Virus genome (UHGV): UHGV-0143428
Length of the DNA stretch: 13,664 nucleotides
Direction: 5' to 3' (one strand)
Source: a virus
The notes beneath the pieces are model-generated. The model did not search any database. It saw only the letters and a program-made list of their open reading frames with translations, and had not been told where the DNA came from. Of this stretch, positions 82 to 12,420 are shown one piece after another. The translations under genes were made by a program, and so were the position numbers. Position 1 is the stretch's first letter. Each line of letters starts with the position of its first letter.

Positions 82-1149
82 TTAGATAAGATCTTCCTCA
101 TCATGATCAAAGCCATACTGTAGAGCTTCAGATAGCTCAATTTGCTTATTTAAGTGTAGATTCACTCGAACAGCAATCCATTTAGCTGGACTTCCCATAC
201 CTGCTATATCCCCTATAGCAGCATTTCTTATCATTGCAGCTCCCCAAGAGTCCTCCCTTTGATAATGTGGATACTCTGCCAAAATTGATTTCGCAGCTTC
301 AATGAACCCTTCTTTATTCATCCCAGGGCGGCGCTCGAAATACCATGAATCATTTAACGCTATATCAATTCTAGGAACATATCGCCCAATTATGTTGTCA
401 TACACTACTGAATGAATTGAACCATGATCGCCATAAATAGCGACATCACTTCCACCAATATTTTGATGCAATTCTCTCTCAATAACATCAATATATCCGG
501 ACTGTCCATTTTCACGGCAAAAATTTGTAACTGAACTAGGGAAGCTTGTTGCTAGCACACTAATTATGGCTTCAGGAATCTCAGTTCTAATCTGATTAAT
601 CGAATTTATTGCTGCAGCTGTTATAGCAGATACATTCCCTCTAATGTAGCCCAAATCTATGAAAACTATGGCATTTTCTGGAGAGTTCATCGATACTAGT
701 GACGTCAGGGTTTTATTAATGTCTGTATTTAGATTTCTAATTCTAAATGCAATTGAACCTTTAAGTTCCTCTAAAACCCTGGCTTGGATAGATATATCTC
801 TAAGTTTTGCTGAATCCGGCATCTGGACTACTGGAATAATATTATCATTTCTGGAACAAAACTCTATCCAGTTTTTAAAACCATTCTCAGGAGAGAGTAG
901 TTCGAAGCTTGACGCGCAATGATGAGAATTATCCTTTGTGACATCCAAAATAAATGGGAGATTACTCATCACTTCTAAACTTTTATCTAACGATACCTGT
1001 ATTTCTTCCGAGCGAGGCCATTTCCCCAAAGAAATTAAAGGTAATATTTTTTTCTTATTCTCATATGATAAATTATTCAGTCCGGTCATTTCTGCTGATC
1101 GTGTTCTTAGGGCTGGATAGTATGAGTAATTTTCAAAATATACTTTCAT
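82..1149 (-). CDS. Hypothetical 355-aa soluble protein, distal gene of the hotspot cassette; candidate P4 beta-type protein (unverified)
   Basis: Uninterrupted 355-codon ORF with a GGAGG RBS about 11 nt upstream of the ATG. The start lies 2 nt after the stop of the upstream 133-aa gene (TAA-AT-ATG), indicating translational coupling. About 37% GC versus about 55-60% in psu/alpha. No Walker A or other motif I can recognise by eye. It sits where P4 carries gop-beta-cII, between cos and int. Confidence 0.7.
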   Translation of the reverse strand: MKVYFENYSYYPALRTRSAEMTGLNNLSYENKKKILPLISLGKWPRSEEIQVSLDKSLEVMSNLPFILDVTKDNSHHCASSFELLSPENGFKNWIEFCSRNDNIIPVVQMPDSAKLRDISIQARVLEELKGSIAFRIRNLNTDINKTLTSLVSMNSPENAIVFIDLGYIRGNVSAITAAAINSINQIRTEIPEAIISVLATSFPSSVTNFCRENGQSGYIDVIERELHQNIGGSDVAIYGDHGSIHSVVYDNIIGRYVPRIDIALNDSWYFERRPGMNKEGFIEAAKSILAEYPHYQREDSWGAAMIRNAAIGDIAGMGSPAKWIAVRVNLHLNKQIELSEALQYGFDHDEEDLI

Positions 1150-1151
1150 AT

Positions 1152-1553
1152 TTAATTAGCCTCCGAATCGATATTTTCTGGTCGGCTTGCTGTTCTTGGC
1201 ATAGCGTTAATTTGGGGGTTCTGAGTAGCAAGATAAGCAGCTATACTTTCCATCTTCTCTTTCTGTTCTGAAGTTCTTGCAAGTTCTTTAATCAATTCTT
1301 TGTTTTCAGCCATCAAGTTTTGATTGGATTCATTATGACTCTTGATTACCTCCATATTACTTTTTATAACATTCGTGTGGTTGTTGCTAATTGCTTTAAT
1401 CGTTCTGTGTGTAAACCATCCAATAAGTAAAGCAGCTAACCATCCAGAACAAACGAGCAACCATTGTGAAATATCTTGGTTGCGGATGAAGCTAGTAGCA
1501 ATAGTGATTATGGTCCCAACAACGCCAATTAATCCATATACATGATTCAGCAT
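1152..1553 (-). CDS. 133-aa small membrane protein (two N-terminal TM helices plus charged coiled-coil tail); candidate toxin/effector of the hotspot cassette, possibly gop-type (unverified)
   Basis: Hydrophobic segments at about residues 6-23 (YGLIGVVGTIITIATSFI) and 31-47 (WLLVCSGWLAALLIGWF), followed by a K/E/N-rich helical tail. It is the first gene after cos, transcribed away from cos, and is AT-rich like its partner. Confidence 0.6.
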   Translation of the reverse strand: MLNHVYGLIGVVGTIITIATSFIRNQDISQWLLVCSGWLAALLIGWFTHRTIKAISNNHTNVIKSNMEVIKSHNESNQNLMAENKELIKELARTSEQKEKMESIAAYLATQNPQINAMPRTASRPENIDSEAN

Positions 1554-1780
1554 CCTTTAACTCTCTCATGCCACGAATTCTTAAGGATCTTGCGACACTG
1601 ACAAGAACCACCTTACATCAATCTATTTTTTGCATATTTTTCAGGATAGTGCCATCAAAAAAGACAGTTTTGGACCATAGGCCATAGATTTTCTTCATTA
1701 TGCTCCAATGTATTAACGAGGTATGTACTGAAGGCACTTTGACTACACAAATAATTAACTAACTTGTCGGTTTGCGCGCG

Positions 1781-1799
1781 GTGCTTTCCCCGCCTCGCC
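1781..1799. other. cos site: P2/P4-type 19-nt cohesive end sequence
   Basis: GTGCTTTCCCCGCCTCGCC at 1781-1799 is the reverse complement of GGCGAGGCGGGGAAAGCAC, the cohesive end of P2/186/P4 as I recall it. It is located just beyond the psu stop, as in P4. Confidence 0.8.
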
Positions 1800-1900
1800 C
1801 GCCCGCTTTGCGGGGCGGTTTTAATGCAGTTGCACTGACACGCTCAGACCGCGCCGGGAATGGCGCGGTTTGCAGAAAATGAGGCAGGAAAACGCATGCA

Positions 1901-1934
1901 AAGCCATGCACCTTATCGATGCATGGCTTTTTTC
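1901..1934. terminator. Intrinsic-terminator-like hairpin between psu stop and cos
   Basis: AAGCCATGCA (1901-1910), 9-nt loop, TGCATGGCTT (1920-1929), then a T-run on the + strand. It lies about 30 bp downstream of the psu stop codon (1965) on the opposite strand, so it is possibly bidirectional. Confidence 0.45.
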
Positions 1935-1964
1935 AGTAAAAACAGGCGGATTTTTCGGGGAGTT

Positions 1965-2537
1965 TTACACAGACTGACGTGATGCCAGTTCTGCACTTTT
2001 ACGCGAAAAAATCATGTTCTGCGCAGGGGTGAATTTTTCACGGCTGTCATCCACCGAAGCCGCGTCAGGCCTGAATCCGATGGTCGTTAAAATGTCGCTA
2101 TCCTGTGCGGAATAATTAATTTTTTCCCCCTTCGCAAGCCAGGACAGAAGGGCTTCACGCAGGGCATCTGTGGCACGCTGTATGGCACAGTTTCGGGCAA
2201 TGGCCGTCAGCTCACTGTAGCCCATCAGCTCCGGTGCCAGTGCGGCCGCCAGTGCTGTGCCGTGCTGCTGCATAAAATCATTCAGCCGCTCGCGGATGCT
2301 GATGTGCTGAACGGCTTCATGCGAACGAATATAACGACCGGCGGCCTGATTCACCTGCCATTTTCTGACTTCGATAATATTGCGTAATTCGTCCAGGCGA
2401 CTGACGTTTCTGCCTTCTCCTGACAGAAGCCGCAGATATTCCTGTTCGGCCGCTGCCAGCTCATTTTTGCGTTGCAGCCATGCTGCTTTGTTATTCTGAC
2501 AGGTGTCAAAGGCCTGCTGTAAGGCTGTGCTTTCCAT
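1965..2537 (-). CDS. psu: Psu, polarity suppression / capsid decoration protein (P4-type)
   Basis: 190-aa ORF starting MESTALQQAFDTCQNNK. Length and N-terminus match my recollection of P4 Psu. It is the last gene of the sid-delta-psu operon, adjacent to cos. Confidence 0.85.
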   Translation of the reverse strand: MESTALQQAFDTCQNNKAAWLQRKNELAAAEQEYLRLLSGEGRNVSRLDELRNIIEVRKWQVNQAAGRYIRSHEAVQHISIRERLNDFMQQHGTALAAALAPELMGYSELTAIARNCAIQRATDALREALLSWLAKGEKINYSAQDSDILTTIGFRPDAASVDDSREKFTPAQNMIFSRKSAELASRQSV

Positions 2538-2610
2538 CGTTATCTCTTTCTCATCATGCTGAAGAATAAAAATACGGTGTGCGGCGACGGCCGGTGTTAA
2601 CCGGCAGCCC

Positions 2611-3111
2611 TCATTCCAGACGCAGCGAATATGATTGTGTTTTTAACCGTACTGGCGGCAGTTCCTGTTTTTCATGCAGGCGTTCTGCCAGTTCGTCCGG
2701 CGTGACCGGGCGGACAATGAAGCGGTTGATGGTCTGAAGCGTTTTAAACACCAGACCACAGCCCGGATCCGTGCACACATAAAAACGCTCGGTGACTTCC
2801 TGAGACAGACGCCGCGATGTTCTTGACAGTGCAAGGCCTTTACATCTCCGACAACAATATCCGGTAACAAGCATTCTTTTCGGGCGTTTCATACCGCAGG
2901 AGGCTGACGTCAGTGAATCGCGGTATCTCTGTTTGCCTGAAATGTATTCCATTCCTGAATCTTTACTGTCAGAGAAAAAGCTTTCACTCGCTTCAAATGT
3001 CGCAGAGCAATAAATATTCCGGCACTGTGCAATCATTATCTTGGTGCCATCGTCCATGAAATGTGCGCGACGGGTGTGAGCAACATGTCCACACGACGGA
3101 CAGTAAATCAT
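2611..3111 (-). CDS. delta: Delta, late-gene transcriptional activator (tandem Ogr-type zinc-finger protein)
   Basis: 166 aa. Two Ogr-like Cys4 units (CPSCGH...CRNIYC near the N-terminus, and CCRRCKG...CTDPGC in the second half). Its start overlaps the sid stop (ATGA). Length matches P4 Delta as recalled. Confidence 0.85.
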   Translation of the reverse strand: MIYCPSCGHVAHTRRAHFMDDGTKIMIAQCRNIYCSATFEASESFFSDSKDSGMEYISGKQRYRDSLTSASCGMKRPKRMLVTGYCCRRCKGLALSRTSRRLSQEVTERFYVCTDPGCGLVFKTLQTINRFIVRPVTPDELAERLHEKQELPPVRLKTQSYSLRLE

Positions 3112-3842
3112 GACAGCAGCCCTCTGGCCTTAAGCTCTGCTCCCTGCTGGTCTATTTTGTCCTGCCACACCTTGCGCTGTGCCGGTGTGCCTGCCACCTC
3201 ATAATCCATGTGCGGGAGTGTTGCCGCTGACAGTCCGGTCAGCCGGAGAACCGGCTCGCCGGTGAGGCTGATTTGCATCTGTTTAATTTTCTGTTCCAGC
3301 GATGATTTCACCTGCTGCATGACAGCCTTTTCCGGTGCGACGTAGCCCTGATGGCCGGTGGTGTTGGCGAGCGGATTTTCCTGTACCAGAATGCTCAGAT
3401 GCATTGCCCGGACAAGCGCCTCACAGGTTTCATTCAGGGCGTGTTCCAGCTCATGCTCTGCATACAGACTCAGAAGGTGATGATGTGCCTTCCGGTAGGC
3501 GGTGGCCGTGCTGTCACACGCCCCTTTCAGGCGTTCACGTTCGAAATTCAGCACCACGGCCAGATTGTCATATTCCTGTACCAGCTCCCGGCGTGCCACG
3601 CGCTCAATGTGGCGCTGTTTCAGCTCGTCGCTCAGGACACCACCGGCTGCACGAAAGGCCGTGCGCCAGTCGTCAGCGTCGTTTCCGTCGGCCTGCGCCA
3701 GCGCATTTTTTTCCTGCTCTGCCCGTTCAATGGCCGTGACGGTCTCATCCATCAGGCGGGCGTTCTCAAGATGGGCGGCTCTGGCCTTTTCCAGTTGTGC
3801 CAGTGCGGGTTGCAGATATTCAGGGATAGTGTGGTCAGACAT
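3108..3842 (-). CDS. sid: Sid, capsid size-determination (external scaffold) protein
   Basis: The ORF is open from 3860, but the GAGGAG RBS sits 8 nt upstream of the internal ATG at 3842 (MSDHTIPEYL...), giving 244 aa, the P4 Sid length as recalled. It is a helical, Q/E/A-rich protein and the first gene of the late operon. Confidence 0.85.
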   Translation of the reverse strand: MSDHTIPEYLQPALAQLEKARAAHLENARLMDETVTAIERAEQEKNALAQADGNDADDWRTAFRAAGGVLSDELKQRHIERVARRELVQEYDNLAVVLNFERERLKGACDSTATAYRKAHHHLLSLYAEHELEHALNETCEALVRAMHLSILVQENPLANTTGHQGYVAPEKAVMQQVKSSLEQKIKQMQISLTGEPVLRLTGLSAATLPHMDYEVAGTPAQRKVWQDKIDQQGAELKARGLLS

Positions 3843-3914
3843 TTTCCGGCTCCTCGTCACTTCAGGTTAAGAAAATTGTGACGTACACCGGACAACAACA
3901 CGACGCATTGCAGA

Positions 3915-3932
3915 TGTGCCAGCCCTGACACA
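3915..3932 (-). promoter_or_regulatory. Candidate Delta/Ogr binding dyad (TGT-N12-ACA) of the sid late promoter
   Basis: TGTGCCAGCCCTGACACA. Its centre is about 80 bp upstream of the sid ATG, which would place a transcription start about 25 nt upstream of the ATG if the dyad is centred at -55, as in P2/P4 late promoters. The motif is short and could occur by chance. Confidence 0.3.
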
Positions 3933-4011
3933 GGAGACTCATCCTCAGACCGGCAAGCCAGGAAAAGGTCGCAGGAAAAACCGGCTTACTGTTTGTTTTT
4001 TTATATTTTAC

Positions 4012-4116
4012 TGTTCACCTCTGTTCACCTTAATAAAAAAGATAAGTAATACAGTAAGTTAAAGGGTGAACAATCGCAGTAATGACTGTTCACCGTCTGT
4101 TCACCACTGTTCACCC
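4012..4116. repeat. Iteron cluster (TGTTCACC octamers), ori-like alpha-protein binding region
   Basis: Direct copies of TGTTCACC at 4012, 4022, 4087, 4098 and 4109, and one inverted copy (GGTGAACA) at 4065. Flanked by AT-rich tracts. P4 alpha binds iterons of this type in ori and crr (recalled). Confidence 0.75.
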
Positions 4117-4219
4117 GTTGATGGGCTTTTTGTGCTGTTTACTACTGTTTGTTTTTATTAATTCGCCGGGAATGAATAAGAAGAAACGATTTGTATTTCA
4201 CTATAAAAATTACAAATTG

Positions 4220-4249
4220 CTTTAAGTGGCTTTAAATGACTTTAAGTGG
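4220..4249 (+). promoter_or_regulatory. Helically phased triple CTTTAA repeat / duplicated TTTAAGTGG upstream of vis (candidate operator/promoter element)
   Basis: CTTTAA at 4220, 4230 and 4240 (exact 10-bp phasing). TTTAAGTGG at 4221-4229 and 4241-4249. It is located about 150 bp upstream of the vis start in an AT-rich region. Confidence 0.35.
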
Positions 4250-4394
4250 AGATGAACAAAAAACACACAGCCATTGTAAGGCAGCCTGAACAAATCCCCC
4301 CTGTTGCGTCTGCTGAAAATATTCACAAAATAAAGCGCTACCCGAAGCCGGACGGACTTATCCGGTGCTGTATGGACATTAACGAGGTAGCCCG

Positions 4395-4661
4395 ATGCAA
4401 GCTGTTTTTTCTTCCCCGTCTCCCGCCCCAGTGACGCCACTGATGCCGCTGCCGGACATCACGCAGGAGCGTTTTTTACGTCTGCCGGAAGTGATGCACC
4501 TGTGCGGCCTGTCACGCTCGACCATCTACGAACTCATCCGTAAGGGGGAATTTCCGCCGCAGGTGAGTCTTGGCGGTAAAAATGTGGCCTGGCTGCACTC
4601 TGAAGTCACCGCATGGATGGCCGGGCGCATTGCCGGACGCAAACGGGGGTACGACGCATGA
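4395..4661 (+). CDS. vis: Vis/AlpA-family excisionase-type transcriptional regulator
   Basis: 88-aa ORF with the AlpA-family signature ([32 protein letters not shown]). GAGGT RBS 8 nt upstream of the ATG at 4395. An internal start at MPLPD cannot be excluded. Confidence 0.75.
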
Positions 4662-5059
4662 TGATGCCCGCTCTGCAAAAACTCCCTTTTTCTGGCTTGC
4701 CTTTTTCCGGCATTTGCGGATATAGTTTTTCCGCTGCCGCAAAATCGGCAGCCGGGCGTGAGAACCCGAGCAATTCACAGGCGACATATGACGCGCCACG
4801 CGTCTTTTTTTGTGTCGCAATCAATGCCACAGAGCGCCAGATTATGGTGTGGTGTGTGGTCAGTCGTGCAGATGGCATTCCGTGCATCCTGCCCGCGTCC
4901 GCTCATTATGCCGCAGAGTCAATGGTAGCTCAGGCGGGGCAGCCTCCGGGCTGGCCGGTATCCGTTAGAGCCGGTATTCTCACCCCCGTCTGGGCTATCG
5001 CCATCGAGCGTGAGAACTCCGGCGATAGCGTTATTTGCTATTCACAGGAGGCTGCCATC

Positions 5060-5257
5060 ATGGCTACAACCCTTACCCCCTCACACCCTGAATTTGTCTT
5101 TGTGTTTGCGGCTGTCCGTCGCGCAGACCGTCATCCCCGTATCTGTATGCTTCGCACCGTCGCCGGTGATGAACGCAGTGCCCGCCGTTCCCTTGTCCGT
5201 GACTATGTGCTCTCCCTTGCTGCCCGTCTGCCGGTGGTGGAGGTGTCCCGTGCGTAA
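5060..5257 (+). CDS. Small hypothetical protein (65 aa) of the leftward operon, translationally coupled to the epsilon-like gene
   Basis: An internal ATG at 5060 within the long 4613-5257 reading frame is preceded by AGGAGG 7 nt upstream. The stop overlaps the GTG start of the next gene. The upstream part of the long ORF is more likely RNA/leader. Confidence 0.4.
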
Positions 5258-5537
5258 TAAAAAAGCCCCTCAGACCGTCTCAGCGCGTCATGACGCCCGT
5301 GAACACCTCAGCATTGAGGCTTACCATAAGCTCAACCGCGCCAGCGCCGTATCCCGGTTTGTTGGGGGTGATTTGATTCACCGTGAACTCTCCGGCCTGC
5401 ATCAGCTCTACATTCCGCATATTTTCAGCTACCTGAATGAAGATATTGATTTTGTGCTGAATGAGCTGAAAGCCAAAGGCCTGTGCCGCGATTTTCTCGC
5501 CCAGCAGAAAGACCGGGGAGACAGGACGCATGTTTGA
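5250..5537 (+). CDS. Epsilon-like protein (P2-derepression factor position), about 95 aa, GTG start
   Basis: GTG at 5250 preceded by GGAGGTG 5-6 nt upstream, in frame through the stop at 5535-5537, which overlaps the ATG of the orf151-like gene. Size and position relative to orf151/alpha match P4 epsilon as recalled; the sequence identity is not verified. Confidence 0.5.
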
Positions 5538-5985
5538 TTTTCCCCAGCCCGGTGAGATTTACCGTTCTGCCGGTTTTCCCGATGTGGCCGTGGTCGGCAT
5601 TCTGGAAGACGGTATTCCGTGGGAAATGCCGTACCGCTGCCCGGACATTGTCTGGAACCCGTACCGCCGTAAATTCAGTATCCTTGTGCGTATCCTCGCT
5701 GACGGACGCACCACAGACATCCCGCTGGGGCGTTTTCTGCGGGAATTTACCTGTGACCGTCCTGACCTGTTTAAACGCAGCCCCGTAAACCGGCATTCGG
5801 TACTGAAAGAAATGGCCGGAGACCCGGAATTACAGAAATGGCGGGAAAAATATCTGGATATTTACCCGCAGGACACTGTTCCGGTCAGCCGGGCAGCACC
5901 GGTGGCGCGGGAATGGCGGGAAATTCCCCGCACGGAGCCTGACCCGGAAACCACCCCGGATAACAGTTACCGCAATTATCTGTAA
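5530..5985 (+). CDS. orf151-like protein (151 aa) of the alpha operon
   Basis: Exactly 151 codons. Its ATG overlaps the upstream gene's stop. It lies upstream of alpha, as does P4 orf151. Confidence 0.65.
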   Translation: MFDFPQPGEIYRSAGFPDVAVVGILEDGIPWEMPYRCPDIVWNPYRRKFSILVRILADGRTTDIPLGRFLREFTCDRPDLFKRSPVNRHSVLKEMAGDPELQKWREKYLDIYPQDTVPVSRAAPVAREWREIPRTEPDPETTPDNSYRNYL

Positions 5986-6120
5986 TTAAAAAACGACCCC
6001 CGAAAAATTAAATGTGCGTATTCGCGCAGGGATACGCACGTCTTCAGGAGACGCAGATATGCCTTATCAGTTAATGCAACCGGCACGGAATGCAGTCATC
6101 TGTCACAGGGAGAAAAGCAA

Positions 6121-6441
6121 ATGAAAACACCCTTACCGCCCGTCTTACGCGCTGCCCTTTACCGTCGCGCTGTCGCCTGTGCCTGGCTGACCGTGTGCGA
6201 ACGTCAGCACCGCTACCCGCATCTCACCCTTGAATCACTGGAGGCGGCCATCGCCGCTGAGCTGGAAGGCTTTTATCTGCGCCAGCACGGTGAGGAAAAA
6301 GGGCGCCAGATAGCCTGTGCCCTGCTGGAAGATTTAATGGAATCCGGCCCCCTGAAGGCCGCGCCGTCGCTGTCCTTTCTCGGGCTGGTTGTGATGGATG
6401 AACTCTGTGCCCGTCACATAAAAGCGCCGGTACTGCACTGA
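6121..6441 (+). CDS. Hypothetical 106-aa protein immediately upstream of alpha
   Basis: ORF with a GGGAGA RBS, ending 14 bp before the alpha start. Preceded by a 21-codon upstream ORF whose TGA overlaps its ATG. Confidence 0.55.
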
Positions 6442-6455
6442 AGGAGAACAACACC

Positions 6456-8789
6456 ATGAAAATGAACGTAACCGCCACCGTCAGCCATGCGCTCGGCCAC
6501 TGGCCGCGTATTCTCCCGGCGCTGGGGATTCAGGTGCTGAAGAACCGTCATCAGCCCTGTCCGGTCTGTGGCGGGAGTGACCGTTTCCGTTTTGATGACA
6601 GGGAGGGGCGCGGCACCTGGTACTGCAATCAGTGTGGTGCCGGTGACGGCCTGAAACTGGTTGAAAAGGTGTTTGGTGTTTCCCCGTCCGACGCGGCCGC
6701 AAAGGTGGCTGCCGTGACCGGCAGCCTGCCACCGGCTGACCCGGCAGTGACGACCGCCGCCGGTGCTGAAACAGACGCTGCCCGGAAGAACGCCGCCGCA
6801 CTGGCACAAACCCTGATGGCGAAAACCCGTCCCGGAACCGGTAACGCCTACCTGACCCGCAAGGGCTTTCCCGGCCGGGAATGCCGGATGCTGACCGGCA
6901 CACACAGAGCCGGTGGCGTGAGCTGGCGCGCCGGTGACCTTGTGGTGCCACTGTATGACGACAGCGGCGAACTGGTTAACCTTCAGTTAATCAGTGCTGA
7001 CGGCCGTAAGCGCACCCTGAAAGGCGGGCAGGTCAGGGGCACCTGTCACATCCTTGAAGGACAGAATCAGGCCGGAAAACGTCTGTGGATAGCGGAGGGA
7101 TACGCGACCGCACTTACCGTGCATCACCTGACCGGTGAAACGGTGATGGTGGCGCTTTCTTCCGTGAACCTCCTTTCTCTGGCCAGCCTTGCCCGGCAGA
7201 AGCATCCGGCCTGTCAGATTGTCCTTGCCGCAGACCGTGACCTCAGCGGTGACGGCCAGAAAAAAGCCGCCGCAGCCGCAGATGCGTGTGAGGGCGTTGT
7301 TGCCCTGCCGCCGGTCTTCGGTGACTGGAATGATGCCTTCACGCAGTACGGCAGGGAGGCCACCCGTAAGGCCATTTATGATGCCATCCGGCCACCGGCT
7401 GAAAGCCCGTTCGACACCATGAGCGAAGCGGAGTTTTCCGCCATGAGTACCAGCGAAAAGGCCATGCGTATCTATGAGCATTACGGCGAGGCGCTCGCGG
7501 TCGATGCCAACGGCCAGCTTCTGTCCCGCTATGAAAATGGTGTCTGGAAGGTGCTGCCACCACAGGACTTTGCCCGGGATGTGGCCGGGCTGTTTCAGCG
7601 TCTGCGCGCGCCGTTCTCCTCCGGGAAGGTGGCCTCCGTGGTGGACACCCTGAAGCTGATTATTCCGCAGCAGGAAGCCCCCTCCCGCCGCCTGATTGGC
7701 TTTCGTAACGGCGTGCTCGACACGCAGAACGGCACGTTCCACCCGCACAGTCCGTCACACTGGATGCGCACCCTGTGCGATGTGGATTTCACCCCGCCGG
7801 TGGACGGTGAAACGCTGGAGACCCACGCCCCCGCGTTCTGGCGCTGGCTTGACCGTGCCGCCGGTGGCCGTGCGGAAAAACGCGACGTGATTCTGGCCGC
7901 ACTGTTTATGGTGCTGGCAAACCGCTACGACTGGCAGCTCTTTCTGGAGGTGACCGGTCCCGGCGGCAGCGGCAAAAGTATCATGGCCGAAATAGCCACC
8001 CTGCTGGCCGGGGAGGATAACGCCACGTCGGCCACCATTGAGACGCTGGAATCCCCGCGTGAACGTGCCGCGTTAACTGGCTTCTCACTGATACGCCTGC
8101 CGGACCAGGAAAAATGGAGCGGCGACGGTGCCGGACTCAAGGCCATCACCGGCGGCGATGCGGTGTCCGTTGACCCGAAATACCGGGATGCGTACTCCAC
8201 GCATATCCCGGCGGTGATTCTGGCCGTGAACAATAACCCGATGCGCTTCACCGACCGCAGCGGCGGCGTGTCACGCCGGCGGGTGATTATTCACTTCCCG
8301 GAACAGATAGCCCCGCAGGAGCGCGACCCGCAGCTTAAGGACAAAATCACCCGCGAGCTGGCGGTCATCGTGCGTCACCTGATGCAGAAGTTCAGCGACC
8401 CGATGCTCGCCCGGTCACTGCTTCAGTCCCAGCAGAACTCAGACGAGGCGCTGAACATCAAACGGGATGCCGACCCGACGTTTGATTTTATCGGCTATCT
8501 GGAAACCCTGCCGCAGACCAGCGGCATGTATATGGGGAACGCCAGTATCATCCCGCGCAATTACCGTAAATACCTCTATCACGCCTATCTGGCCTACATG
8601 GAGGCAAACGGCTACCGGAATGTACTCAGTCTGAAAATGTTCGGGCTGGGGCTGCCGGTGATGCTGAAGGAATACGGACTGAATTACGAGAAGCGCCATA
8701 CCAAACAGGGGATACAGACCAACCTGACGCTGAAAGAGGAAAGCTACGGCGACTGGCTGCCAAAATGTGACGACCCTACAACAGCCTGA
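6456..8789 (+). CDS. alpha: Alpha protein: bifunctional primase-helicase with C-terminal origin-binding domain
   Basis: 777 aa, the P4 alpha length as recalled. N-terminal zinc motif CPVCGG...YCNQCG, TOPRIM-like EGYATALTV and LAADRD, Walker A GPGGSGKS at 7951-7974, and Walker-B-like acidic residues. AAGGAG RBS 8 nt upstream of the ATG. Confidence 0.9.
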   Translation: MKMNVTATVSHALGHWPRILPALGIQVLKNRHQPCPVCGGSDRFRFDDREGRGTWYCNQCGAGDGLKLVEKVFGVSPSDAAAKVAAVTGSLPPADPAVTTAAGAETDAARKNAAALAQTLMAKTRPGTGNAYLTRKGFPGRECRMLTGTHRAGGVSWRAGDLVVPLYDDSGELVNLQLISADGRKRTLKGGQVRGTCHILEGQNQAGKRLWIAEGYATALTVHHLTGETVMVALSSVNLLSLASLARQKHPACQIVLAADRDLSGDGQKKAAAAADACEGVVALPPVFGDWNDAFTQYGREATRKAIYDAIRPPAESPFDTMSEAEFSAMSTSEKAMRIYEHYGEALAVDANGQLLSRYENGVWKVLPPQDFARDVAGLFQRLRAPFSSGKVASVVDTLKLIIPQQEAPSRRLIGFRNGVLDTQNGTFHPHSPSHWMRTLCDVDFTPPVDGETLETHAPAFWRWLDRAAGGRAEKRDVILAALFMVLANRYDWQLFLEVTGPGGSGKSIMAEIATLLAGEDNATSATIETLESPRERAALTGFSLIRLPDQEKWSGDGAGLKAITGGDAVSVDPKYRDAYSTHIPAVILAVNNNPMRFTDRSGGVSRRRVIIHFPEQIAPQERDPQLKDKITRELAVIVRHLMQKFSDPMLARSLLQSQQNSDEALNIKRDADPTFDFIGYLETLPQTSGMYMGNASIIPRNYRKYLYHAYLAYMEANGYRNVLSLKMFGLGLPVMLKEYGLNYEKRHTKQGIQTNLTLKEESYGDWLPKCDDPTTA

Positions 8790-9115: not shown

Positions 9116-9326
9116 TTTCGAAAAAAAATTTTTTATGTGGATAAAAGATGCACTGGTTTGGATCCGAGCTACGGATCCAAACTTACTGATTAAAAATGAT
9201 TTAACTTTCCGATTTATTGATGGGCTGAAAATAGATTGGTCAGAAAAACAGTGGGGGCACAAAAGGGGGCATATTTCATTGTTGTGTTTTATTATTTGTT
9301 TTTTATCATTAACTTATTTTGATGTT

Positions 9327-9346
9327 TGAGTCCGGCCTTCGCACCA
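9327..9346 (+). other. att core: 20-bp copy of a tRNA 3' end (T-arm/acceptor/CCA), tRNA-Leu (leuX)-like
   Basis: TGAGTCCGGCCTTCGCACCA matches, with one missing G, the 3' end of E. coli tRNA-Leu(CAA) as I recall it (..TTCGAGTCCGGCCTTCGGCACCA). Upstream sequence is AT-rich and not tRNA-like, so this is a core repeat (attR-type) rather than a full tRNA gene. Confidence 0.6.
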
Positions 9347-9359
9347 AAAGTATGTAAAT

Positions 9360-9384
9360 AGACCTCAACTGAGGTCTTTTTTTA
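9360..9384 (+). terminator. Rho-independent terminator (tRNA-type terminator on the chromosomal side of the att core)
   Basis: AGACCTC (9360-9366), loop AACT, GAGGTCT (9371-9377), followed by T7 (9378-9384). Confidence 0.7.
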
Positions 9385-9459: not shown

Positions 9460-9477
9460 TACCAACATATGTTGGTA
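9460..9477. promoter_or_regulatory. 18-bp perfect palindrome TACCAACATATGTTGGTA in the integrase promoter region, plus a third half-site
   Basis: Perfect dyad at 9460-9477. An additional TACCAACA half-site at 9511-9518 lies just upstream of the int RBS (GGGAGGG). Candidate Int arm-type or repressor site. Confidence 0.45.
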
Positions 9478-9531
9478 CAGATGATGGTATTTCCGGTTCG
9501 ATAATGCTTGTACCAACAGGGAGGGAATACG

Positions 9532-10797
9532 ATGGCATTAACAGATATCAAAGTCAGAGCAGCCAAGCCAACGGATAAGCAATATTAGCTGACTGATGGT
9601 GGCGGTATGCATCTGCTTGTCCATCCAAATGGTTCTAAGTACTGGCGTTTGCAGTACCGTTATGAGGGAAAGCAAAAAATGCTGGCACTTGGGGTTTATC
9701 CTGAAATCACACTAGCGGATGCCAGAGTACGTCGTGACGAGACGCGTAAGCTGCTTGCGAATGGCGTCGATCCGGGAGACAAAAAGAAAAATGATAAGGT
9801 TGAACAGAGTAAAGCACGAACCTTTAAAGAAGTCGCGATTGAGTGGCATGGCACCAATAAAAAGTGGTCTGAAGATCACGCCCATCGTGTGCTAAAAAGT
9901 CTTGAAGATAATCTTTTTGCAGCGCTTGGTGAACGTAATATCGCTGAGTTAAAAACTCGAGATTTATTAGCACCTATTAAGGCCGTAGAAATGTCTGGAC
10001 GTCTTGAAGTGGCCGCTCGTCTTCAGCAGCGCACTACAGCCATCATGCGCTATGCAGTGCAAAGTGGGTTAATTGATTATAACCCGGCACAAGAGATGGC
10101 TGGGGCGGTTGCTTCCTGTAATCGACAACATCGTCCCGCGCTTGAATTAAAGCGCATCCCTGAGTTGCTTACAAAAATAGATAGCTATACTGGTAGGCCG
10201 CTAACCCGATGGGCGATAGAACTCACTTTGCTGATCTTTATTCGGTCCAGTGAGCTGCGTTTTGCTCGTTGGTCAGAGATCGATTTCGAAGCGTCTATAT
10301 GGACTATCCCACCGGAGCGGGAGCCTATTCCTGGAGTGAAACATTCCCATAGAGGCTCAAAAATGCGTACAACGCATCTAGTGCCTCTTTCAACGCAAGC
10401 TCTTGCAATTTTAAAGCAGATAAAACAGTTTTATGGGGCCCATGACTTGATATTTATTGGTGATCACGATTCGCACAAACCCATGAGTGAGAATACGGTA
10501 AATAGTGCGTTACGGGTCATGGGGTATGATACAAAAGTAGAGGTTTGTGGTCATGGCTTTCGAACAATGGCCTGTAGTTCATTGGTCGAATCAGGTCTGT
10601 GGTCTCGTGATGCTGTTGAACGTCAGATGAGCCACATGGCGCGAAATTCAGTGAGGGCCGCGTATATCCATAAAGCAGAGCATCTGGAAGAACGGCGATT
10701 GATGCTACAGTGGTGGGCCGATTTTCTGGATGTAAACAGAGAAAGGTTTATCAGTCCATTTGAATATGCAAAGATTAATAATCCATTAAAACAGTAA
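9532..10797 (+). pseudogene. int: P4-family tyrosine integrase with an in-frame amber codon at codon 19 (N-terminally disrupted; 396-aa ORF remains from an internal Met)
   Basis: ATG at 9532 with RBS encodes MALTDIKVRAAKPTDKQY, then TAG at 9586-9588, then in the same frame LTDGGGMHLLVHPNGSKYW... This is the conserved P4-type integrase N-terminus interrupted by a stop. The downstream ORF 9607-10797 carries the integrase catalytic region (R..H..R..Y type C-terminus). Confidence 0.8.
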
Positions 10798-11197
10798 TCA
10801 TCCCGGGCAAATGCCCGGGAATTATTCTAGGATTATTTTCTTTGTTAAAAAAGACAAACGGTATTAACTGATGTATTTACTATTTACCGCTCCCTGCAGG
10901 GGGGATTATCAGAATCCGCGGTTATTCATTATTTATATACATTCAATAAAAAAGTAACCTCATAAAAAATCCTGTACTCACAGGGTGATGCGGGATAACT
11001 GACGTAAGGAGTGCTGCAGGGATTTGATGGTCCCTTGTGCTGATATGAATACGGATATTTTATACAGAATACTTTTCAGTACAAGCGACTGTATTACAGT
11101 CTGCCATATATGATTACCTGTGATCAGGAAGAATAAGTGGCTGAGGTTTCAAACTGTCTGCCGGTATATTCCTCTCTCCCTTAAAAACCATAACAGG

Positions 11198-12420
11198 TTA
11201 GTTATCTTCGTCTGTCAGCGGATTGAATGGCGGTATATTTTCAGTACAAATACCGGTCATCCACTGAAAAATACCTGCGAAATGACGGGCACTGATTTTT
11301 CTACTGACGGGCTGATGAGACGTTATGTCACTGGCGGTAATAATCAGTGGCACACTGTAGCCTCCCTGCACATGACCATAATGATGAACAGGATTGGCAC
11401 TGTCGCTGACCGACAGCCCAAGGCCAGAAAAGTAAAGCATGGCGAAATGACGTGAGTACCGGCGAAGGATACCATCAAGCTGGCCAAGAAAGTTATCCAG
11501 TTTACTGATGCTGGCGAGGTAACAGGCAATTTTTCGGGGATACTGCTCCAGGTAATTATTCGGCTAGGAGTTAAGGCTGTCACACGGATTTGGATGAGAA
11601 CCCATCATGTGCAGGAAAATTATCTTCGGAGAGGATGTATCCGCCAGCGCACGTTCTGTTTCCTGTAACAACAGTTTGTCATCTGTTTTACGGGAAGCGA
11701 AGCTGCCTTTCTTGAGGAAAGTGGCATGCTCCGCATCAGAAGCAATAACAGAGATGCGTGTGTCATGCTCCCCCAGTTTTCCTTGATTGGATATCCACCA
11801 TGTGCTGTATCCTGCTTTTGCTGCCAGCGCCACCACATTGTTGCCGGAATCAGGGTTCTGCTCATAGTCATAAATCAGTGTCCGGCTCAGGGAAGACACT
11901 GTACTGGAGGCTGTCGAGGTATAATCGTCAATAAATAAACCGGGTGCCGTATTCAGCCACGGTGTGGTTGGTACGGGATAGTCATACACTGACATATAAT
12001 CCCTGCGCACACTCTCACCAGTGACAATAACAATCGTATCATATAACGGTGCTCCCGGCTGGATTTTCCAGTTGTCAGCCCCGTGCTACTCAGTTGTTCA
12101 TAACGCTGCATTTCACGTAATGTGTCAGTTGTCCCCACAACTGTTCCTTTAACCATCCGCAATGGCCAACGGTTTACAGAGCATAATACGAATAGCCGTA
12201 GAGCCAGCCAGTTACGGTGGTCGCGATGGTGTGTCCGCCAGAAAATCACCACGAATACCAGAATCGCGGCACTGACCAGAAAATGATAAACAGGAAACAC
12301 GGGGCGGTTCACTTTGCTTTCTCCTGTAGTGTTTTCTGTAGGTTCTGAACCGGTTCTAGCGGGGTTGTGAGGCTGATGGCAATCGCCGGGCTCTTCCTGC
12401 ATGTTACACTGGTACTGCAA
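11198..12420 (-). pseudogene. Frameshifted sulfatase-family (phosphoethanolamine-transferase-like) membrane protein pseudogene
   Basis: Adjacent minus-strand ORFs in different frames: 11953-12420 contains a hydrophobic TM segment; 11564-12010 contains sulfatase-type motifs (RRDYMSVYDYPV, FLHMMGSHP); 11344-11583 and 11198-11440 continue in other frames. Boundaries are approximate. Confidence 0.5.

Follow-up and report, generated by a model that had tools for sequence, protein, structure and literature searches.

The integrase gene intB of the leuX-associated island of E. coli appears to have lost its function through one nonsense substitution that turned Lys19 (AAG) into TAG, a reading to which we assign a probability of about 0.86. 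The gene was found in a 13,664-nt stretch of DNA (UHGV virus genome UHGV-0143428), which is referred to throughout, at its full length, as the window. By sequence identity, positions 9532–10797 of the window can be recognised as intB (b4271), which belongs to the leuX-associated island known as KpLE2 or 'cryptic prophage PR-Y', and the gene can be classed by descent as a P4-family (DUF4102 / IntSXT-subgroup) tyrosine integrase.

In the window, an ATG at 9532–9534 is followed by 18 sense codons (MALTDIKVRAAKPTDKQY) and then by TAG at 9586–9588, which stands at codon 19. Beyond the stop the frame continues unchanged, beginning with LTDGGGMHLLVHPNGSKYW, until TAA at 10795–10797, and a mechanical list of open reading frames (ORFs) contains a 396-aa ORF at 9607–10797 with an ATG start. 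The initial annotation had described an ATG at 9532 supported by a ribosome-binding site, an in-frame amber codon, a continuation in the same frame and an N-truncated 396-aa ORF from the Met at 9607, and the sequence reads exactly so. The Shine-Dalgarno (SD) sequence serving ATG 9532 forms an anti-SD duplex of −11.6 kcal/mol, placing it in the top 0.8% among all AUGs of the window. When the protein was translated through the stop, Pfam matched Arm-DNA-bind_3 (PF13356) to residues 3–87, covering profile positions 1–82 of 83 (E = 3e-28). Because a strong SD sequence precedes the frame and the domain match begins at the first profile position, the 54 bases before the TAG represent conserved coding sequence and not a chance reading frame. 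These 18 codons are identical to the N-terminus of the intact 421-aa alleles, and the sole difference at codon 19 is AAG versus TAG. The features of the locus are collected in Table 1.

Table 1. Coordinates of features within the window; empty cells indicate that no remark applies.
Feature	Position	Strand	Remarks
Satellite beta	82–1149	−	
Satellite gop	1152–1553	−	
Satellite psu	1965–2537	−	
Satellite delta	2611–3111	−	
Satellite sid-like gene	3108–3860	−	
Satellite alpha primase	6456–8789	+	Regulators lie between the sid-like gene and the primase
Satellite right attachment site, leuX 3'-end remnant (GTTTGAGTCCGGCCTTC-GCACCA)	9324–9346	+	Aligned to the RR1 leuX-intB region and to attL/attR of LC-1302-2020
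Terminator-like hairpin and T-run, normally following leuX	9360–9377	+	The same sequence is found after leuX in K-12 type genomes
TACCAACA, copy 1	9460–9467	+	Just upstream of the intB ribosome-binding site; from repeat count
TACCAACA, copy 2	9470–9477	−	As copy 1
TACCAACA, copy 3	9511–9518	+	As copy 1
Shine-Dalgarno sequence GGAGG	9520–9524	+	7 nt before ATG 9532
Original start and integrase codons 1–18 (MALTDIKVRAAKPTDKQY), today an 18-codon mini-ORF	9532–9585	+	
Amber TAG, codon 19	9586–9588	+	Ancestral AAG (Lys19), from comparison of alleles and orthologues and PDB 3JU0
Residual 396-codon ORF from Met26	9607–10797	+	Equals the intB pseudogene annotated in MG1655
Terminator-like GC-rich hairpin	10801–10820	+	Directly 3' of the integrase stop codon

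What the TAG replaced is apparent from relatives of the gene. Five E. coli loci were fetched, each slightly divergent from an 81-nt query centred on the TAG; all five carry AAG (Lys) at codon 19 and are annotated by the PGAP pipeline with a 420–421-aa integrase that starts at the equivalent of 9532. In intact E. coli alleles, the SD sequence and the ATG are separated by 8 nt (GCATG, as against G-ATG in the TAG haplotype). When the reconstituted sequence was used as a protein query, thousands of relatives were recovered, and nearly all of the best 120 matches, which were looked at, are 415–422 aa long; those with a named source come from Cronobacter, Enterobacter, Pectobacterium, Dickeya, Klebsiella, Citrobacter, Serratia, Yersinia and Pantoea, among others. 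Thirty orthologues from other Enterobacterales genera (415–422 aa) have Lys at codon 19, and residues 1–25, K19 included, are nearly invariant across 31 aligned full-length orthologues. The arm-binding domain of the HAI7 integrase (PDB 3JU0) also aligns with residues 1–94 (E = 2e-37) and reads YKLTDG around codon 19. This structure and that of the corresponding HPI domain (PDB 3JTZ) were reportedly described by Szwagierczak and colleagues in 2009; both are intact arm domains from other islands, whereas any Met26-started product of the window allele misses the first 25 residues.

Since the intact alleles, the orthologues from other genera, 3JU0 and P4 Int all conserve the N-terminus, Lys19 included, the TAG can be regarded as a derived nonsense mutation, AAG to TAG, in a P4-family tyrosine integrase. 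Aligning the gene with P4-family integrases, the check proposed at the outset, places the stop at a conserved sense codon (Lys19, AAG), and this premature stop is flanked by conserved coding sequence, as expected for a pseudogene. Homologues that natively start at the downstream Met, the case named in advance as contrary to this reading, can be ruled out, as all 30 orthologues, like the intact E. coli alleles, keep the 25 N-terminal residues.

The family assignment draws on domain content, overall similarity and genomic position. The Arm-DNA-bind_3 (DUF4102) domain that marks the P4 family is present in the read-through translation, and no single ORF encodes it completely. The core-binding domain Phage_int_M (PF22022, E = 1e-26) and the catalytic domain Phage_integrase (PF00589, E = 2e-18) were both detected. 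P4 Int (440 aa; X51522 / NC_001609) shares this three-domain architecture, also targets the 3' end of leuX, and is 58.5% identical to IntB over residues 1–408; P4 Int is intact and active, whereas IntB is interrupted at codon 19. The gene also lies where such an integrase is expected, directly downstream of the tRNA gene that holds the att core, since leuX and intB are adjacent in RR1, MG1655 and many other genomes. Close intact counterparts are the 421-aa leuX-island integrases of other E. coli, such as WP_001218930.1 and WP_001218934.1, which have 95–99.6% DNA identity, the same position after leuX and the same start codon, and which differ from the window in having AAG at codon 19 and the 8-nt spacer in place of TAG and 7 nt.

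Across 1,421 nt around intB, the window matches many genomes at 100% identity, among them RR1, BL21 and C derivatives. The 1,266-nt frame itself is identical to that of RR1 and one nucleotide away from that of MG1655, the difference falling in codon 71 (9742–9744), which is ACG (Thr) in the window and GCG (Ala) in MG1655. E. coli K-12 intB is the same gene with the same allele: its codon 19 is TAG, and the region upstream and the pseudogenes downstream match those of the window. It adjoins leuX, whereas in the window a P4-like satellite lies between leuX and intB, and MG1655 has an additional IS2K element downstream of intB. In NC_000913.3, the curated K-12 reference, the intB pseudogene is annotated at 4496750–4497940, from Met26 through the stop, and the 'cryptic prophage PR-Y' feature at 4496675–4497940 corresponds exactly to the whole 421-codon frame. 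The inactivation of intB is therefore already known, by virtue of this reference annotation and not of a paper; literature searches on intB and its island found no paper discussing the codon-19 stop. The initial annotation was right to propose a P4-family integrase inactivated by a nonsense mutation, but did not recognise the reference allele in it. As the reference K-12/B allele, recorded as a pseudogene within the remnant 'PR-Y' in curated MG1655, the intB TAG has little discovery value in itself.

Automated annotation presents the gene differently. In RR1, PGAP takes the CTG that immediately follows the TAG as the start of a 402-aa 'tyrosine-type recombinase/integrase' (9589–10797 in window coordinates) with no pseudogene flag, a call that occupies 3210–4418 in the fetched locus L001, and an unflagged integrase CDS was present at intB in every TAG-allele genome inspected or listed. 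This mismatch between PGAP and curated MG1655 probably affects most of the ~920 RefSeq genomes with the TAG allele. Because the allele goes unflagged, counts of an 'intact integrase' that are used to call islands mobile will be inflated at leuX.

The stop is common in the species. Among 5,426 complete E. coli genomes, 923 (MG1655, W3110, BL21 and C among them) contain the exact 81-mer with TAG, and 868 the matching 81-mer with AAG. The TAG haplotype is also missing one C at 9531/9532, which shortens the SD-ATG spacer from the 8 nt of intact alleles to 7 nt; a 95-mer that spans both the TAG and this deletion is found exactly in 922 genomes, so that the two changes are linked in 922 of 923. Two TAG subtypes, one nucleotide apart over 1,421 nt, could be distinguished, each with ~460 genomes, where both figures are extrapolated from 8 of 60 evenly spaced rows of the ranking. 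The subtype 100% identical to the window comprises natural isolates (from humans, pigs, chickens and dogs) together with B and C strains, and most sampled carriers of the 99.9%-identical MG1655-type subtype bear laboratory or K-12-derivative labels. A sequencing or assembly error at 9586, which had been raised as a possible explanation of the TAG, has a negligible probability and can be set aside: the same base is found in 923 independent complete assemblies, among them MG1655, W3110, BL21 and C, and the curated reference carries the TAG allele and marks it as a pseudogene.

If the nonsense codon acts as it appears to, ribosomes would initiate at the strong 9532 start and release an 18-residue peptide on reaching the UAG; the full 421-aa integrase would then be absent, barring rare read-through or a laboratory strain with an amber suppressor. 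A fraction of the ribosomes may initiate or reinitiate at AUG 9607, which would yield a 396-aa protein without the first 25 residues of the arm domain. If IntB behaves like the lambda-type and P4-type integrases, such a protein would be unable to form an arm-dependent intasome, and would support neither excision nor integration of the island. Lambda-type integrases require arm binding in order to build the recombinogenic complex. We infer that the integration and excision activity of intB has been lost owing to the nonsense codon. The gene would be the decaying remnant of an island that became fixed, and a P4-like satellite with its own intact integrase would later have entered leuX, moving intB ~12 kb from the tRNA gene.

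As predicted by the initial annotation, the sole long ORF left by the stop begins with Met26, so that 25 residues are missing from the N-terminal end of the arm-binding domain. Pfam still recognises all three domains in this ORF, and the central core-binding and catalytic domains are intact; the arm-binding match is limited to profile positions 24–82 of 83, positions 1–23 having been lost. Residues R238, K277, H341, R344, H368 and Y378, to which we assign catalytic roles from general knowledge of the family, are invariant in 32 sequences including the ORF of the window. AUG 9607 is separated by 18 nt from the UAG and by 4 nt from an SD-like GGUGG upstream, with an anti-SD pairing of −6.3 kcal/mol (top 13% of window AUGs), and reinitiation at this codon is plausible. 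Since the ORF is open, the catalytic residues are intact and the SD-like sequence is usable, an N-truncated protein with some activity could still be made. In an AlphaFold2 model of an intact allele (P0001), strands are placed at residues 18–21 and 26–30, which gives a weak hint only because the model is poor (mean pLDDT 55, with residues 1–20 below 50).

Two changes in the body of the gene bear on how the remainder should be read. E370A (codon 370, 10639–10641) is private to the TAG haplotype and common to the whole of it, and falls in the stretch bounded by the conserved His368 and the Tyr378 presumed to be catalytic. A71T is confined to the sub-lineage of the window and is not found in MG1655. 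At both sites the residue replaced (A71 and E370) is invariant among the 30 other-genus orthologues and is shared by P0001, the intact E. coli allele. Intact homologues show 0–2 private changes at invariant sites, and the TAG allele of the window shows two, so that as a sign of relaxed constraint these changes are suggestive only.

It is on this residual ORF that the main alternative to inactivation turns, namely that a Met26-started 396-aa IntB is made and retains a function, binding the leuX core and either stabilising the island or modulating recombination of the P4-like satellite. The 396 open codons and the full set of catalytic residues are what such a protein would need, reinitiation is favoured by a moderate SD-like sequence 4 nt ahead of AUG 9607 and by a stop only 18 nt upstream, the allele is common (923 genomes), and the satellite Int, at 58% identity to IntB, has the leuX core in common with it. 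Against this, the haplotype is nearly without internal diversity, so that an open ORF is expected from recency alone and says nothing about selection, and about half of the sampled copies are of the MG1655-type subtype, mostly laboratory or K-12-labelled strains. The private amino-acid changes of the haplotype fall on invariant residues, most of the gene is deleted in other lineages, and satellites adjoin both TAG and intact alleles. Moreover, loss of 25 of the ~85 residues of a small beta-rich domain seems more likely to misfold the N-terminus than to yield a clean arm-less protein. We therefore consider a functional truncated IntB unlikely. That a Met26-initiated, arm-defective protein is made and has some effect at the shared leuX site is similarly doubtful, and it is more improbable still that the TAG haplotype (~17% of complete E. 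coli genomes) persists through the action of an arm-less Met26 IntB on the leuX core, locking the island in place or tuning competing P4-like satellites.

A second alternative is that the amber codon is decoded, by natural read-through or by a host suppressor, giving functional full-length integrase at the low level that an integrase needs. UAG followed by C is a relatively weak terminator at which some read-through may occur, and many laboratory K-12 derivatives carry supE44, which partly suppresses UAG by inserting Gln and would do so here at codon 19; the strong SD sequence at 9532 has also been retained. The leuX gene is itself the supP locus. Its anticodon, however, is the wild-type CAA in two related genomes, and the 13.7-kb window contains no tRNA genes and hence no suppressor tRNA. 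The stop bears no recoding signal and is derived, being limited to one E. coli haplotype, with Lys in all other alleles and orthologues; together with the lack of a dedicated tRNA in the window, this is not the pattern of programmed read-through. The same haplotype also bears E370A at an invariant residue of the catalytic domain. These observations leave little room for the earlier suggestion that the gene needs amber suppression, and we regard decoding of the stop as highly improbable, in favour of inactivation by the nonsense codon.

The position of intB in the window reflects the insertion of a second element at leuX. The genome of LC-1302-2020 covers 99% of the window at 98.7% identity and was used to name the satellite genes on the basis of this DNA identity. 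In its annotated order, leuX is followed by a 422-aa P4-type integrase, an sce7726-family gene, beta, gop, psu, delta, a hypothetical gene (sid in other records), regulators, the alpha primase and a small ORF, and then by the leuX 3' remnant, intB with its TAG, and the downstream pseudogenes. The interval between int and beta, which holds the sce7726-family gene in LC-1302-2020, is a variable or defence hotspot of P4-like satellites. Positions 82–8789 of the window can be seen to comprise a P4-like satellite. The leuX remnant at 9324–9346 differs from intact leuX by one C>T change and one missing G, a variant that is also present in LC-1302-2020. Satellite-free genomes align to the window only from 9324 on, and from 9347 rightwards the sequence is that normally found downstream of leuX in K-12. 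The junction of a satellite with the leuX-island integrase was found in only 47 genomes, whereas direct adjacency of leuX and intB is common. This identifies the satellite as the newcomer and the intB island as the older resident, in agreement with the order proposed by the initial annotation.

The two elements also differ in their candidate arm-type repeats. TACCAACA occurs three times in the 13.7-kb window (0.36 expected), and all three copies lie within 9460–9518; two are direct and one is inverted, forming a perfect palindrome (TACCAACAT/ATGTTGGTA), and the third overlaps the SD region. These repeats are probably arm-type or operator/autoregulatory sites of the leuX-island integrase. On the satellite side, GGGGGCA-type repeats are present at the right end (9253–9271) and upstream of the satellite's own int (1799–1837 in the fetched locus L007); they are likely candidates for P4-type arm sites, although taken alone they are not statistically enriched in the window.

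A literature search on the integrase of P4-like satellites at leuX yielded nothing relevant. Satellites adjoin both the TAG allele (LC-1302-2020 and S1-ESP-02-A) and the intact 421-aa allele (JNE170426). TAG or AAG status was confirmed by fetching the loci, as the alignment span can mislead: S1-ESP-02-A, with a span of 408 nt, nevertheless carries the TAG allele and has an extra base in the satellite part. Among the fetched loci, there was no exclusive association between the TAG allele and the presence of a satellite. With satellites beside both types of allele, and with different candidate arm-type repeats on the two elements, the proposal that a truncated IntB interferes with the neighbouring satellite finds no support, though such an effect may still occur. 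The leuX locus can be viewed as a stack of elements, in which a live P4-like satellite lies ahead of a dead island integrase, and as such it offers a convenient natural test case for whether a defective integrase already in residence has any effect on incoming elements with the same att core.

The TAG is one of several forms of decay at this locus. In a second degenerate intB allele, codon 19 is still AAG and the part of the gene beyond about codon 149 is missing; this allele is carried by ~460 genomes, a figure again extrapolated from 8 of 60 rows. In the ST131 strain uk_P46212, the intB deletion runs into the neighbouring pseudogene, so that the remaining integrase sequence is joined to a phosphoethanolamine transferase fragment (2654–3255 in the fetched locus L009). 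Comparison of these alleles indicates that the leuX-island integrase is being lost by several routes in separate lineages. The genes 3' of intB are also pseudogenes, comprising a phosphoethanolamine transferase and a transposase fragment. The phosphoethanolamine transferase remnant (yjgX in K-12) lies at ~11114–12297 on the minus strand of the window; in related annotated genomes the yjgX-type remnant is frameshifted and has internal stops, a further sign that the island downstream of intB is degenerate.
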